Virus record (IMG/VR): IMGVR_UViG_3300020392_000011
Span: 4,634-68,633 of that record
Strand: one strand, 5' to 3'
Source: a virus
Length of the DNA: 64,000 nucleotides
Position numbers and translations under genes: made by a program. Below are positions 48,211 through 53,963 of the stretch, one piece after another; the first letter of the stretch is position 1, and each line of letters begins with the position of its first letter. The notes beneath the pieces were generated by a model. The model worked only from the letters and a program-made list of their open reading frames with translations, was not told the origin of the DNA and ran no database searches.

Positions 48211-48239
48211 TGTACATTATTAATTAAACGTGGTATAAT
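48211..48239 (+). promoter_or_regulatory. Early/middle promoter heading the DNA-modification operon
   Basis: TGTACA-N17-TATAAT. Confidence 0.8.
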
Positions 48240-48263
48240 ATTACTAAATTATGGAGTATTGAT

Positions 48264-48644
48264 ATGAAAGAATCATTAAAAGTTTTACAAGAGTGTGCTG
48301 AACTACAGACAAAAAAATCTAACGATTATCAGAATCCAAATTCTAAGATAACTCAAGCAGATTATTATCCAAATGGTATTACTACCATTCACGACATTAT
48401 GCATGCAAAAATGCTAAGAATGTTGTCTGTTATGGAAGCAATGCAATCAGATGATTATAAACCAAACTTTGAATCACTCGAAGACTCAGGTAAAGATTTA
48501 ATTAATTATACATCATTTTTCGTTGCATATTGCAGACATGGCATTCCTGGCCAAGTCAAAAACAAAGATGTATTTAATAAACCAATAAATAAAGTACCAA
48601 CAGCTGGTGCTGCAATGTATAACGTCCAGGAAGAACATGAATAA
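48264..48644 (+). CDS. Nucleotide-modification-associated helical domain protein (Nmad1/DUF1599-like)
   Basis: KKSNDY...K.LR...ESLEDSGKDLINY pattern; adjacent to the TS-family gene. Confidence 0.6.
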   Translation: MKESLKVLQECAELQTKKSNDYQNPNSKITQADYYPNGITTIHDIMHAKMLRMLSVMEAMQSDDYKPNFESLEDSGKDLINYTSFFVAYCRHGIPGQVKNKDVFNKPINKVPTAGAAMYNVQEEHE

Positions 48645-49305
48645 TACTAAAGATATAGCTAAAATATTTGTTAATGCTCTTAATAACGAAGAGTATGTAA
48701 TCGATAAAACCGGTTGTAAAACTATTGAAATTATTGGTGCATCCTTTATTGCAGATGAACCTGCAATATTTGGTGAACCAAACGAAGACTATATAGAAAA
48801 AGAATTAATGTGGTACGAAAGACAATCAACTAATGTTTATGATATATACGGCCATGATAATCCACCAAAGGCTTGGCAATATTCTGCAAATAAACATGGT
48901 GAAATTAATTCTAATTATGGCCACTTAATTTATTCCAAAAAGTATTTTAAGCAATACGATAAAGTATTTAAAGAATTGCTTTCAAATCCAGACTCAAGAC
49001 GTGGCTCTATGATATATCAAAGACCAAGCATTTGGCATGAGTATAAAGAAAATGGTAAAAATGATTTTATCTGCACTAATGCTGTAACATATTATATTCG
49101 CGATAATAAATTACATTGCGTAGTTCAAATGCGTTCTAACGATGTGATATTCGGTTATCGTAATGATTTTGCTTGGCAAGAATATGTGTTAAGAAAATTA
49201 CAAGAAGACTTATACTACAATGGAATACATTGCGAATTAGGTGATATCCATTGGCAAGTACAAAACTTACATGTGTACGAGAGGCACTTTGATTTAGTCA
49301 AATGA
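48637..49305 (+). CDS. gp42: dCMP hydroxymethylase (thymidylate synthase superfamily)
   Basis: NSNYG, DSRR, DFICTN (catalytic Cys), MRSNDVIFGYRNDFAWQ closely matching T4 gp42 including the dCMP-specifying Asp; LHVYERHF. Confidence 0.88.
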   Translation: MNNTKDIAKIFVNALNNEEYVIDKTGCKTIEIIGASFIADEPAIFGEPNEDYIEKELMWYERQSTNVYDIYGHDNPPKAWQYSANKHGEINSNYGHLIYSKKYFKQYDKVFKELLSNPDSRRGSMIYQRPSIWHEYKENGKNDFICTNAVTYYIRDNKLHCVVQMRSNDVIFGYRNDFAWQEYVLRKLQEDLYYNGIHCELGDIHWQVQNLHVYERHFDLVK

Positions 49306-51140: not shown

Positions 51141-52354
51141 AACATGCAGGTATAGTACCACTCATTGGTGGAGAAATTTTAGCATCAGACGATGCTTATG
51201 GTAAAATACCAGAATACTTAATGACATATTCTGGATTTACAGGTAATGAAGAACATTTAGTTAAATACTATAAGGATAAAGGGCATAATGTTCCTTATCA
51301 TATACTAGATGAAAACCCTGGTATAAAACTAGAAAACGTCGACGTTGTATCGTCAGTATGTCCATGTGCTGGTTTAAGTACCTATCATAATTCACATGGT
51401 GAACAAAACGAAAATAACCAATGGATGGAAAAATCATCAGAGTATGTACTAAAACAGGTTAGGCCGAAAGTACTGTGGGGAGAGAATGCACCAGGCCTAG
51501 CTGGAAAGATAGGTGCATTCATGAGAGAGAAGTTGTACCATCTTGGCCAAGAAAATGGGTACAACTTCTCCATTTTCTTGACAAAGAGTTTATTACATGG
51601 CAATCCACAATATCGTAAAAGAACATTTTTCTTTTTTTGGCAGAAAGAACATTTTGGCGATCAAGTACCAGTATTAAATTTCATTAAAAAGGAAAGACCT
51701 ACAATACAAGAATTAATACTTAGCGTAAAAACAAATTTTCAAACTGAAATATTAAATAAAAAAACACCAAGTAAAGATGATCCATATTATAGATTTATGC
51801 TAGAAGAAGTCATGGGCGGAATGACACATGCTGAATATTCTAAATCAGTAGCTCATGAACCTAAATCAGTTACCATTGAATCTAGGTTAATGAAAATGGG
51901 TTATAGGCATTCATTGATAGCTGAGTGGATGGATGGATTTGGAGAAGAGTTTGAAAGAGAAGCTGCCAAAGCTAGACGTAAAGATGCTAAAATTGCTAGT
52001 GGTGGTAACATAATGCTTAGAGGTACAATTATACCAGTAAGCTACATAGGAGCATTTGTAGTACATTTACCAAAAGTAGTAGCACATCCAGTTGAAGATA
52101 GATATTTAAATATCGCAGAAGCAAAAGCTATTATGGGTTTACCAGATGACCTAGAAGTTATTGATCCACTAAAGAACTATAATCATATATGCCAAAATGT
52201 ACCATTTCATACAGCTAGAGATATGGCAGTTGAAGTACAAGCTTGTCTAAATAATAAAAGAGATAAGATAGAAACTAAATACTTATTTCAAAATAATTTA
52301 GCTCAAAAGTATGATTATACGAGAGACGAAAATAATTTGGAGGCTTTTTTATGA
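51137..52354 (+). CDS. C5-cytosine methyltransferase-fold protein with atypical SAM motifs
   Basis: Motif IV CPCAGLS, VI ENA, VIII PQYRKR, IX RYLNIAEAKAIMGLP; motif I reads VPLIGGE and motif X reads CQNV. Confidence 0.75.
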   Translation: MKHAGIVPLIGGEILASDDAYGKIPEYLMTYSGFTGNEEHLVKYYKDKGHNVPYHILDENPGIKLENVDVVSSVCPCAGLSTYHNSHGEQNENNQWMEKSSEYVLKQVRPKVLWGENAPGLAGKIGAFMREKLYHLGQENGYNFSIFLTKSLLHGNPQYRKRTFFFFWQKEHFGDQVPVLNFIKKERPTIQELILSVKTNFQTEILNKKTPSKDDPYYRFMLEEVMGGMTHAEYSKSVAHEPKSVTIESRLMKMGYRHSLIAEWMDGFGEEFEREAAKARRKDAKIASGGNIMLRGTIIPVSYIGAFVVHLPKVVAHPVEDRYLNIAEAKAIMGLPDDLEVIDPLKNYNHICQNVPFHTARDMAVEVQACLNNKRDKIETKYLFQNNLAQKYDYTRDENNLEAFL

Positions 52355-53103
52355 TGAAAAAAATATTATTAACTGGCACACAATTCCATCGTAGAGGATT
52401 TATTGCTAATCATTTTTTAGATTTATATCGCGATAAATACGAAATTATAGAATATCAAGGAGATATTCGAAATGCTTATCAGATACAAATTTCTGATTTT
52501 GATATGGTTATACATTTAGCAGCATTAGCAGGTGTTCGTAAATCGCATGAAGAACCAGAAGAATATTGGGAAACAAATGTAGTAGCATCGCAATATTTTT
52601 TCGATGCATGTAGATTTCAAAATGTACCAATTATTTATGCATCGTCATCGTCAATATACGAATGGTGGCAATCACCTTATGCAACGACTAAATGGGCAAT
52701 GGAACATATTGCAAAAGAGGTAAATTCAATTGGACTTAGGTTTCATACAGTTTACGGACCTGATAGCAGAACTGATATGTTATACGATGCTTTATTAAAA
52801 AAGGATCCAAAAATAACTTATCTTACAAATCATACACGTGATTGGACACATGTTACAGATGTATGCACAGCTATTGAAATTTGTATTGAAAACTTTTGGG
52901 ATATATCATCTAAGCATAAAGCAATAGATGTAGGTAACGGAAAGCCAGTATCAGTAGTTGATATGGCAAATAAAGTTTGGCCAGATAATAATCTACCAAT
53001 CAAAGAAGTTACAGGCGAAAGAGAACATACTTGTGCAGATCCTACAATTTTAAAAGAATATGGTTGGGATCCACAGTACCACATATTAGAGGAAGAATTA
53101 TGA
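52351..53103 (+). CDS. NAD-dependent nucleotide-sugar epimerase/dehydratase (extended SDR)
   Basis: TG...GFI, HLAALAGVR, YASSSS, YATTK, RFHTVYGP. Confidence 0.88.
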   Translation: MMKKILLTGTQFHRRGFIANHFLDLYRDKYEIIEYQGDIRNAYQIQISDFDMVIHLAALAGVRKSHEEPEEYWETNVVASQYFFDACRFQNVPIIYASSSSIYEWWQSPYATTKWAMEHIAKEVNSIGLRFHTVYGPDSRTDMLYDALLKKDPKITYLTNHTRDWTHVTDVCTAIEICIENFWDISSKHKAIDVGNGKPVSVVDMANKVWPDNNLPIKEVTGEREHTCADPTILKEYGWDPQYHILEEEL

Positions 53104-53963
53104 CAATGTTTGAAAAAAGAAGAATTAAGACTAGGATAGCCATAATAGGCCATGGCTTTGTTGGTAAAGCAGTAGATTATGGATTTAGTAACCCTAAAGT
53201 AGAAAAGAAAATATTAGATCCAATATATGGAACTACATCTGAAGATATAAAAAATCTAAAAGATTGGGGACCTAATCTTACATTTGTTTGTGTACCTACA
53301 CCGATGGGAGATGATGGAGATATAGATTCATCGATACTAGATGAAGTAATGCAAGATTTAAGAGACATTAAGACTCTAATTGTAATTAAATCTACTATCA
53401 CACCATCTATAATCGATAAATATTATCAAACAAATGTAGTTTATAATCCAGAGTTCTTAACTGAAAGGTCAGCATGTGAACAATTCGTAAATCCAGAGTT
53501 TCATATATTTGGAGGAACTGAACAAGCTTGTCAAGAATTAGATGAACTATATGAAAAATATAGCTTATGTACTCCTTGTATGACTTATTATTTAAATAAA
53601 GCGGAAGCAAGCTTTGTTAAATATGCTATTAATTCATTTTTAGCTACTAAAGTCACATTCTTTAATCAGCTATATGATGCATGCAATAGTTATGGTCATG
53701 TTAATTTTAATAAAGTAATTAAAGCTGTAGGAGCTGACGATAGAGTAAGTATATCACATACTAAAGTTCCTGGATTTGATGGTAAGCAAGGTTACGGTGG
53801 AGCGTGTTTTCCAAAAGATACATTTGCATTTTCACAATTTAGCGATAAACTAACTTTATTAAGAAAAGCTATAGAAATTAATAACGATTATCGTTCTCAA
53901 TACGAAAGAGACGATAGAGAAAAAGAACAAAACATTCAATTTAACCATGTACAAAATGACTGA
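53100..53963 (+). CDS. ugd: UDP-glucose/GDP-mannose dehydrogenase family protein (short form)
   Basis: IIGHGFVG, CVPTP, IKST, NPEFL, KYAINSFLATKV, GYGGACFPKD. Confidence 0.88.
   Translation: MTMFEKRRIKTRIAIIGHGFVGKAVDYGFSNPKVEKKILDPIYGTTSEDIKNLKDWGPNLTFVCVPTPMGDDGDIDSSILDEVMQDLRDIKTLIVIKSTITPSIIDKYYQTNVVYNPEFLTERSACEQFVNPEFHIFGGTEQACQELDELYEKYSLCTPCMTYYLNKAEASFVKYAINSFLATKVTFFNQLYDACNSYGHVNFNKVIKAVGADDRVSISHTKVPGFDGKQGYGGACFPKDTFAFSQFSDKLTLLRKAIEINNDYRSQYERDDREKEQNIQFNHVQND

Follow-up and report, generated by a model that had tools for sequence, protein, structure and literature searches.

Sugars on 5-hydroxymethylcytosine (hmC) have been described in T-even phages and, more recently, in metaviromes. 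According to PMC13216743, the T2/T6 glycosyltransferase (GT) belongs to the PF20691 family (TAGT) and has a GT-A fold, and many solitary TAGTs exist; in the T-even phage ime09 the genes run in the order gp43-imm-gp42-GT (TAGT family)-uvsX-gp41. In a preprint, Pyle et al. (bioRxiv 10.1101/2023.12.21.572611) report the reconstitution of metavirome clusters of C5-methyltransferase (C5-MT), TET and GT genes, in which GTs of "subclass II" mostly need an adjacent epimerase. There, the GT-A enzyme of contig 57 (GT57) with its partner epimerase gave hexuronic-acid-modified cytosine (5hmC), another GT attached 3-deoxy-D-manno-octulosonic acid (Kdo), and Kdo, heptose and hexuronic acid (HexA) were found on the cytosine of phage DNA; their mining also placed GT-A enzymes next to ThyS genes. 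Here we analyze a comparable operon, at 48211-53963 of a 64,000-nucleotide stretch (the window) of the IMG/VR virus record IMGVR_UViG_3300020392_000011, which encodes a gp42-type dCMP hydroxymethylase, a TAGT, a DNA cytosine-C5 methyltransferase (C5-MTase, Dcm), a short-chain dehydrogenase/reductase (SDR) and a UDP-glucose dehydrogenase (UGDH)-like protein. We propose, with a probability of about one half, that hmC in this phage carries a phage-supplied hexuronic acid, as galacturonosyl- or glucuronosyl-hmC, through the action of UGDH and the SDR. In the literature covered, subscription journals lying outside it, we found no description of a gp42-TAGT-C5MT-SDR-UGDH operon, of a two-domain UGDH, or of hmC in pelagic T4-like phages.

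The source record is a 68.6-kb fragment, 38% complete by CheckV, and what is said of this phage's gene content applies to that fragment. The genome is that of a T4-like marine myovirus of ~33% G+C whose nearest named phage is C48C1 (Kyanoviridae; UvsX identity 72%). The block lies between the DNA polymerase gene (43084-45606) and uvsX (54759-55823), a module syntenic with that of ime09, and contains nine plus-strand open reading frames (ORFs; 48264-53963) that overlap by 4-35 nt or are separated by 1-nt gaps. A promoter-like site, TGTACA-N14-TGGTATAAT (48211-48239, +), heads the operon. With at most one mismatch allowed, the window contains 13 such sites, where shuffled sequence would be expected to give 0.16; the copies flanking 48211 are at 45611 upstream and 53948 downstream, and the latter (53948-53976, +) heads a peroxiredoxin gene and marks the end of the operon. 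Since the next site of the family is found only there, the nine genes form one promoter-bounded block. This is the layout that an earlier note, drawn up from the letters of the window alone, had proposed, and both the single promoter and the packed ORFs lie where it had put them. The motif spans 27173-57799 (for example 30517, 38516, 43029, 45611, 48211 and 53948), with 11 of the 13 sites on the plus strand in gaps that separate blocks of replication-module genes, and is probably the early or middle promoter consensus of this phage. A megablast of the whole operon against 50,697 phage records returned no match, a sensitive nucleotide search matched the gp42 segment alone, and no operon protein scored above its cut-offs in NCBIfam. 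For comparison, loci were fetched with the GT, with UGDH and with a UGDH alignment, and all ORFs of the resulting 126 loci were scored with iterated hidden Markov models of the window proteins; collapsing near-duplicates left 76 unique loci plus two outgroups, 25 of the unique loci containing gp42.

The second gene (48637-49305, +; the ORF opens with GTG at 48607 and the likely start is the ATG at 48637) encodes a thymidylate synthase (TS) homologue. It matches PF00303 (2e-16), phrog_160 (3e-51) and, over residues 13-221 on 17-225, T4 dCMP hydroxymethylase (PDB 1b49/6a9b; E 1.2e-72), with 55-57% protein identity to T-even gp42 and ~65% DNA identity to gene 42. Its DFICTN, which holds the catalytic Cys, aligns with T4 DFMCTN, and YRNDFAW with FRNDYAW; the RSND..G.RND motif singled out in the earlier note is thus present and aligned with T4 gp42, and the T4 D179N mutant entry 6l18 carries its Asn exactly at the aligned RND Asp, the position of ThyA N177. 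According to Lee et al. 2026 (PMC13326640), TS homologues specific for dCMP are recognised by N177D, those that form a non-methyl product by an acidic residue at L143, and 5-hydroxy-dCMP synthases, RB69 gp48 among them, by D169N. Here the protein has an acidic residue at the L143 position, the Asp three residues before the Cys (ND-F-I-C), and keeps Asp at the D169 position (MRSND). Because D169 is kept, hmC is predicted rather than 5-hydroxycytosine, a product that we considered and rejected. The assignment of the protein as an orthologue of T4 gp42, and with it the prediction of hmC, is well supported by these alignments.

Two neighbours of gp42 recur with it among the relatives. The first gene of the operon (A126; 48264-48644, +) is Nmad1/DUF1599-like: its own product has no Pfam match, and PF07659 (Nmad1/DUF1599, "Nucleotide modification associated domain 1") is matched by 7 of 11 aligned homologues (best E 8.5e-07). 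It also hits phrog_18404, "hydrolase", at 1.7e-11, an Atlas lead points to DUF1599, and the family profile found no credible match (best E 0.35); the gene lies directly upstream of gp42 in 17 of the 25 gp42 loci. A T4 cd-like dCMP deaminase gene (49591-50043, +; PF00383 4.1e-19, phrog_174 8.6e-45) follows gp42 in all 25, either directly or with one to three genes between.

The glycosyltransferase gene (50307-51140, +) belongs to the TAGT family, with PF20691 at 2.1e-14 (54.4 bits against a Pfam gathering cut-off of 27.5) and phrog_842, "beta-glucosyl-HMC-alpha-glucosyltransferase", at 1.4e-36. R11, D79, D80 and D175 are invariant across eight aligned sequences, including one T-even enzyme, to which the identity is 23-24%; the third GT-A motif reads QDF in the window protein and EDF, EDT or EDM in the others, and a search of PDB sequences with the window GT gave no match. 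TAGT shares an operon or stretch with gp42 in 16 of 18 unique TAGT loci, and the nearest homologue in the sequence records (MW202897) adjoins a gene annotated as "pyrimidine hmase". Pfam AGT found nothing in the record of the window or in three records of its clade (49-76% complete), a positive control record being matched; Pfam BGT found nothing in window and clade records up to 76% complete, a weak negative as these are fragments and the search had no positive control. With neither AGT nor BGT found, the TAGT would have to act on hmC itself. The earlier note, which saw no T4-type alpha- or beta-glucosyltransferase, was right to this extent, and had missed that the GT is itself of the T2/T6 beta-glucosyl-HMC-alpha-glucosyltransferase family, at the T-even position. 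From the family assignment and gene neighbourhood, DNA glycosylation by a solitary TAGT is a well-supported prediction.

The evidence on the nature of the sugar comes mainly from the SDR (52351-53103, +; PF01370 8e-22), a short extended-type protein of 250 residues. Its best PDB matches are the UDP-glucuronate 4-epimerases MoeE5 (3.5e-15), 5u4q (5.9e-14) and BcUGAepi (6zl6, 1.6e-13), with GalE at 1e-5 or worse; in NCBIfam no specific model was reached (GalE 53.7 bits against a cut-off of 262). R140, which aligns with Arg185 of BcUGAepi, does not vary among the 14 phage SDRs compared, and neither do T133 (the equivalent of Thr178), Y110xxxK114 and a Ser run (ASSSS), all aligned with 6zl6. In BcUGAepi, according to PMC12338863, Arg185 grips the carboxylate of UDP-galacturonate, and its disruption leads to decarboxylation. 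Kinship with UDP-glucuronate 4-epimerases and the conserved Arg therefore favour a uronic acid over a pentose derived from it.

A pairing of UGDH with an extended SDR is also the route to UDP-xylose. The SDR could thus be a UDP-glucuronate decarboxylase (a UDP-xylose or 4-keto-pentose synthase), hmC then carrying xylose or an arabinose-type sugar. Pentose-modified cytosines are on record in Shewanella phage Thanatos and in RB69/DLP3, and the window SDR is trimmed, so that its chemistry could be altered. Set against this, the SDR keeps both the Arg185 equivalent and the Thr/Ser network, and the best solved relatives are epimerases rather than UDP-xylose synthases (UXS) or ArnA, the ArnA-type NCBIfam model reaching only 3.7e-11, and that on the long form of the SDR; we consider a pentose very improbable. 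The earlier proposal of a non-glucose sugar, uronic acid or pentose, accordingly narrows to its first half, which the SDR kinship and the Arg favour, and its "SDR epimerase" becomes an unusually short protein resembling UDP-glucuronate 4-epimerases.

The second line of evidence is the company that the SDR keeps. Two of the 25 gp42 loci end right after the GT, and in the 23 that extend further an SDR of the window family is always present (23/23), in 21 of them after a DNA GT of one of three types. The arrangement of the window clade, TAGT-Dcm-SDR-UGDH, is found in 12 loci and TAGT-SDR in three; four have a T4 alpha-GT homologue (PF11440, E 1e-36 to 5e-21) followed by SDR-UGDH-Dcm, two have the protein X369 followed by the SDR, and in two the SDR follows cd. 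X369 (369-374 residues; L099 15492-16601, L110 18357-19481), located between cd and the SDR, has no Pfam match of its own. Its model (pLDDT 88) retrieves GT-B enzymes in a fold search, including T4 beta-GT (1qkj; TMq 0.56, TMt 0.59), which makes it a probable third kind of hmC-DNA glycosyltransferase for this group of phages; the claim comes from the fold search, the Atlas match to PF13524 (12% of one cluster) being a lead only. In L099, L106 and L110 the gp42-GT cassette, its SDR included, lies apart from UGDH, which is found before uvsX or after gp41. As it sits beside three GT types, in several orders and apart from UGDH, the SDR appears tied to the hmC glycosyltransferase, whichever family supplies it, and its link to DNA glycosylation is supported by this comparison.

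These observations bear on a different explanation, in which the TAGT glycosylates hmC with a host sugar nucleotide (e.g. UDP-glucose), while UGDH and the SDR are auxiliary metabolic genes (AMGs) that remodel the nucleotide-sugar pool or the envelope glycans of the host and merely share the replication-module hot spot where the hmC cassette inserted. An SDR that moves with the cassette away from UGDH and adjoins three kinds of DNA GT is not what this explanation leads one to expect, nor is its presence in every sufficiently long gp42 cassette against 17 of the 51 other loci, at least six of those 17 being fragments cut upstream of the GT or Dcm. The single promoter in front of all nine genes also speaks against it. 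Moreover, since Pyle et al. found Kdo, heptose and HexA on phage cytosine, "surface-glycan" genes are not diagnostic of a role in envelope glycans. What favours it is the behaviour of UGDH, which stays before uvsX with or without gp42 and to which we return below; overall we regard this explanation as possible, though on balance improbable.

The last gene of the operon (53100-53963, +; likely ATG start at 53100 in an ORF opening with TTG at 53031) encodes a dehydrogenase with the N-terminal NAD domain (PF03721) and the central domain (PF00984) of UGDH and no other. It aligns with residues 87-292 of a 446-residue UGDH; GHGFVG and the catalytic GGACFPKD are invariant, and so are K174, N178, C236, K239 and D240, the catalytic Cys, Lys, Asn and Asp being kept. 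The earlier identification as UGDH is therefore sound for the NAD and central domains and the catalytic motif, and has to be qualified for the part that binds UDP. Among the best 120 of 7945 relatives, with lengths of 199-294 residues, none has PF03720; the domain pair of the window protein recurs in 119, and the remaining one, a 199-residue fragment, matches PF03721 only. At least 538 contigs gave a match to the two-domain UGDH.

A number of points weigh against a phage-supplied uronic acid, and those concerning the enzymes themselves are as follows. UGDH lacks the C-terminal UDP-binding domain PF03720 and ends ~25 residues past the central domain, and it scores 132.6 bits with TIGR03026 against a cut-off of 189.8, equivalog models lying far below their cut-offs; with the domain missing and the NCBIfam cut-offs missed, UDP-glucose is an assumed substrate. 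The NAD loop of the window SDR is disturbed, reading TGTQFHRRGF in place of GxxGxxG, with an insertion of four residues in the window and in L019/L036 and of five in L012. The SDRs of the window clade are ~65 residues short, without the beta2-beta3 segment and the C-terminal helix: 250 residues in the window against 314-321 in the other lineages, the canonical length being ~320-345. On the side of the product, DNA that carries a uronic acid would become more negatively charged, and if replacement by hmC were complete, the C5-MTase would be left without an obvious substrate in phage DNA.

The trimmed enzymes could also act off UDP-sugars altogether: glucose would be placed on hmC and then oxidised and epimerised on the DNA, or the UGDH-like protein would oxidise another primary alcohol, with the C5-MTase-like protein acting on the modified base. 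It fits such a scheme that UGDH misses exactly its nucleotide-binding domain, across thousands of viral homologues, that the SDR of the window clade is shortened as well, and that the C5-MTase co-occurs with gp42 (18 of 22 unique Dcm loci, the other four being cut upstream). There is, however, no precedent for it; UGDH is also found in genomes with neither hydroxymethylase nor DNA GT nearby, in most lineages the SDR is of full length and its C-terminal part, of the nucleotide-sugar type, is intact, and the methyltransferase keeps the canonical motifs IV, VI, VIII and X of SAM (S-adenosylmethionine)-type enzymes, among them the Asn for which CmoX has Arg. We give this scheme little credence.

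The remaining points against phage-supplied hexuronic acid concern the distribution of the genes. The loci are related phages rather than independent samples and most of them were fetched via UGDH, so that all counts given here are descriptive. UGDH precedes uvsX in 75 of the 76 unique loci. The stretch fetched lacks gp42 in 51 of the 76, and in these UGDH usually comes after an RfaE-domain-II-like cytidylyltransferase and PMM, in some of them also after KdsA-KdsB. A paper on pelagimyophages (PMC7029224) reads such genes, including UGDH and rfaE, as AMGs for the lipopolysaccharide (LPS) O-chain, and such flanking genes, like this published reading, fit the host-sugar explanation. The earlier note had set surface-glycan genes against gp42 and TAGT as the possible companions of UGDH and the SDR; where gp42 is absent UGDH does keep the former company, which by the note's own standard counts in part against it. 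Between a primase-like gene and UGDH there is a variable nucleotide-sugar island with KdsA, KdsB, PMM and the RfaE-like cytidylyltransferase (L087 3133-9980, which is G001; also L061, L071, L103 and L114), whose sugars, Kdo and heptose, are among those reported on phage cytosine by Pyle et al. In G001, L075 and L077 the island also contains, next to cd, a TS homologue that is divergent and has the dCMP-type Asp.

The complete genome of C48C1 has the SDR-UGDH pair before uvsX and no PF00303, TAGT or AGT, which fits genes serving the host's sugars. It also encodes a Tet_JBP protein (E 3e-17), followed by a 344-residue protein and by UDP-galactopyranose mutase, so that its TET/JBP enzyme has a neighbouring sugar enzyme of its own, another point on the same side. 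This unannotated cluster (L126 2584-6031; OQ984149.1 49583-53030), with a Tet_JBP dioxygenase of 472 residues, resembles a cluster for post-replicative glycosylation of DNA, with a sugar of the galactofuranose type. We had entertained C48C1 as a clean counter-example and dropped it once Tet_JBP and the mutase were found: the link of SDR and UGDH to DNA modification is neither refuted nor supported by this phage. In a related record that is 61% complete (G002), Tet_JBP lies within an amino-acid:DNA-transferase/kinase cluster and not a sugar cluster, which again weighs on the negative side. The genes there (L127 5694-9973, -) are glutamine amidotransferase, GNAT, amino-acid:DNA transferase (PF18724), Tet_JBP and P-loop nucleotide kinase 3, an arrangement of the thymidine-hypermodification type in which the hydroxymethyl base would come from TET/JBP and not from a TS homologue. 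In the complete genome G001, cd and UGDH are the neighbours of the divergent TS homologue, whose residue at the N177 position is Asp. All five examined records that are at least 61% complete have some pyrimidine-C5 enzyme, which does not in itself show that UGDH serves that enzyme; no PF00303 was found in five further records, each only 13-24% complete. Tet_JBP, whose model matches C48C1 and G002, was not found in the record of the window, nor in four others from its clade or related to it, a weak negative as all are fragments and the search had no positive control.

We nevertheless take hexuronic acid on hmC as the best reading, because it joins the conserved linkage of the SDR, the conservation of its active site and a published precedent; it is weakened because UGDH lacks a domain and is near-universal in these loci. 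The operon would then combine T4-style pre-replicative replacement of cytosine with a phage-supplied sugar donor. By homology, gp42 would convert dCMP to 5-hydroxymethyl-dCMP and cd would feed dUMP to dTMP synthesis as in T4. Beyond homology, hmC is inferred to enter the DNA at replication; a MazG-like gene lies 2 kb upstream. The two-domain UGDH would oxidise UDP-glucose to UDP-glucuronate, and the short SDR would epimerise this to UDP-galacturonate. The TAGT-family enzyme, expected from homology to glycosylate DNA, would put the uronic acid straight on the hydroxymethyl group, so that the product would be 5-(hexuronosyl-oxymethyl)cytosine, with galacturonic acid as the likeliest sugar. The C5-MTase, as an ordinary SAM-type enzyme, might methylate host DNA or those cytosines that hmC has not replaced; this is the weakest part of the scheme.

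That enzyme (51137-52354, +) belongs to a divergent, marine-viral family of DNA cytosine-C5 methyltransferases. It matches PF00145 at 8.7e-16 (58.7 bits, cut-off 22), and the family is large, with 2068 relatives at E<=1e-5. PLIGG, PCAGLS, ENAP, QxRxR and QNVP are invariant motifs; specifically, P76-C77 (motif IV), E116-N117 (VI), Q158/R160/R162 (VIII) and Q353-N354-V355-P356 (X) are invariant in 12-13 sequences, and in motif I, the AdoMet-binding motif with canonical FxGxG, the family has an invariant P-L-I-G-G instead. An AF2 model (pLDDT 83, pTM 0.84) retrieves M.HhaI and M.HaeIII with Foldseek at E ~6e-11 and TMt 0.66-0.71. The "odd C5-MTase fold" of the earlier note was thus abandoned in favour of an ordinary fold with canonical motifs IV, VI, VIII and X, which weakens the case that the note had built. 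Dcm occurs in 22 unique loci, 18 with gp42 in the fetched stretch. The enzyme is predicted to be ordinary in structure, and its role is where our model is least secure.

Another C5-MTase-fold enzyme from a marine T4-like phage is CmoX of Synechococcus phage S-B43 (PDB 8yf3), which is among the top matches of the window protein (fifth by structure, TMt 0.66; sequence E 0.005). CmoX is defined by Arg350 at the position of HhaI Asn304, an SPPC motif and a CmoA partner (PMC12783734). The window enzyme differs in having Asn354 at the motif-X Asn (QNVP) and VCPC instead of SPPC, and the operon contains no CmoA-like gene; a carboxymethyl-transferring role was therefore rejected. In cyanophage S-TIM54 (L002), an annotated "ThyA" (5114-5956, -) and a homologue of the window C5-MTase (7986-9203, +; 30% identity) are 2 kb apart. 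This "ThyA" has Asp at the ThyA N177 position, a possible dCMP-type signature given that the alignment has only 20% identity.

A fuller picture, which seems to us unlikely as a whole, is that in a large and abundant marine T4-like group every cytosine is hmC bearing negatively charged galacturonic or glucuronic acid, with a donor made wholly by the phage, including by a previously uncharacterised two-domain UGDH class that has lost its UDP-binding domain, and with the C5-MTase-fold enzyme adding a second, post-replicative layer, either to whatever cytosine is left or to the modified base itself; such a composite is without a described counterpart. Apart from the likely source of the window, at least five studies have yielded marine metagenomes in which this cassette and related ones are found. 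If hexuronic acid on hmC is confirmed here, uronic-acid hmC would be natural in widespread ocean myoviruses, beyond metavirome genes expressed in E. coli, and the block of "LPS auxiliary metabolic genes" would be re-read as supply genes for DNA modification. The charge and restriction behaviour of such DNA would affect the recovery of these phages by sequencing and cloning, and three tractable enzymes would be gained: a solitary TAGT acting on hmC, a minimal UDP-glucuronate epimerase and a domain-less UGDH. It also raises the question of what a C5-methyltransferase does in an hmC phage.

Other genes in and around the operon complete the description. Between gp42 and cd lies C98 (49302-49598, +; overlaps of 4 and 8 nt), which has no Pfam or PHROG match and no homologue outside its own record among the 126 loci, so that the "unknown ORF" of the earlier note keeps that status; in the relatives, cd comes directly after gp42 without it. 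Between cd and the TAGT, the small membrane protein DUF6552 (50009-50305, +; PF20189 3.9e-19) is found across the clade of the window and is missing in L037, L041 and L056. Outside the operon, a MazG-like nucleotide pyrophosphohydrolase gene (45948-46349, +; phrog_671 3.4e-20, phrog_12019 MazG-like 7.4e-09) accompanies A126-gp42-cd in L099, L100 and L110 and also occurs in gp42-less loci; it is a candidate dCTPase that may be tied to the operon. The flanks of the operon (54000-54503 and 47253-48199) hold the peroxiredoxin (AhpC/TSA), present in some clade members only, a SleB-like cell-wall hydrolase and a staphylococcal-nuclease-like gene. Contigs from RNA libraries of the likely source sample cover parts of the operon at >=99% identity, with pieces of seven genes, and span 49096-49559, a weak sign for part of C98. 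DNA carry-over is possible, and gaps in the cover and contig ends at 48224 are uninformative, so no transcript structure is claimed; the contigs are weakly compatible with expression and do not prove it.

Two further features were seen among the relatives. In one lineage (L107 3362-6237 and L108), gp42 and cd are separated by a 318-residue protein (phrog_13881), a pyridoxal-phosphate-dependent (threonine-dehydratase-like) enzyme and a 373-residue protein, and UGDH sits between A126 and gp42; this lineage may have a different cytosine hypermodification. The DNA polymerase (L060 12067-15000) and uvsX (L104 11579-13900; L112 1201-3700) are each found in two separate matching pieces, which suggests inserted elements (intron, intein or homing endonuclease).

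The operon can now be set beside the systems that it most resembles. It shares with the T-even (T2/T6) module gp43...gp42-TAGT-uvsX-gp41 an orthologous gp42, a GT of the same family, the position between polymerase and uvsX, and the dCMP deaminase. In T2/T6 (PMC13216743) a GT-B enzyme forms alpha-glucosyl-hmC, to which the TAGT attaches another glucose, whereas the TAGT of the window would act on hmC itself, and the SDR, UGDH and C5-MTase, all present here, are absent from the T-even module. With RB69/DLP3, which have arabinosyl-5-hydroxycytosine, and RL38J1, as presented by Lee et al. (NAR 2026, PMC13326640), it has in common a TS homologue beside DNA GTs and phage NDP-sugar genes, located in those Straboviridae between polymerase and uvsX/rIIA. 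The TS homologues described there have D169N and make 5-hydroxy-dCMP, while the window protein keeps D169. The sugars of RB69/DLP3 and RL38J1 are arabinose or galactofuranose, supplied through an isomerase, kinase, uridylyltransferase or mutase instead of UGDH and an epimerase, RL38J1 having galactosyl/glucosyl clusters, and their GTs are GT-B rather than GT-A. In Bacillus phage SP-15 (PMC5977210), a phage UGDH has likewise been proposed to supply glucuronate that ends on DNA; there the base is dihydroxypentyl-uracil with phosphoglucuronolactone attached via a phosphodiester, the genes resemble teichuronic-acid genes, and gp42, TAGT and C5-MTase, which the window has, are lacking.

Another close counterpart is subclass II of Pyle et al., with a C5-MT, a 5mYOX/TET enzyme, a GT and an epimerase. 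The window likewise combines a GT-A enzyme (JGT/TAGT-like, R...DDD...EDY/F) with an epimerase and a C5-MT. It differs, in a comparison made from the published description, in having pre-replicative hmC from gp42 in place of MT plus TET, in a UGDH-like enzyme that the phage itself brings, and in its setting in the genome of a T4-like marine myovirus. The earlier note had put forward a candidate new pathway; hexuronic-acid-5hmC made by a GT with an epimerase, and Kdo-5hmC, were already reported in 2023, and NDP-sugars made by phages for their DNA are known in RB69/DLP3, RL38J1 and SP-15. The finding is a variation on described DNA modification and not a categorically new pathway.

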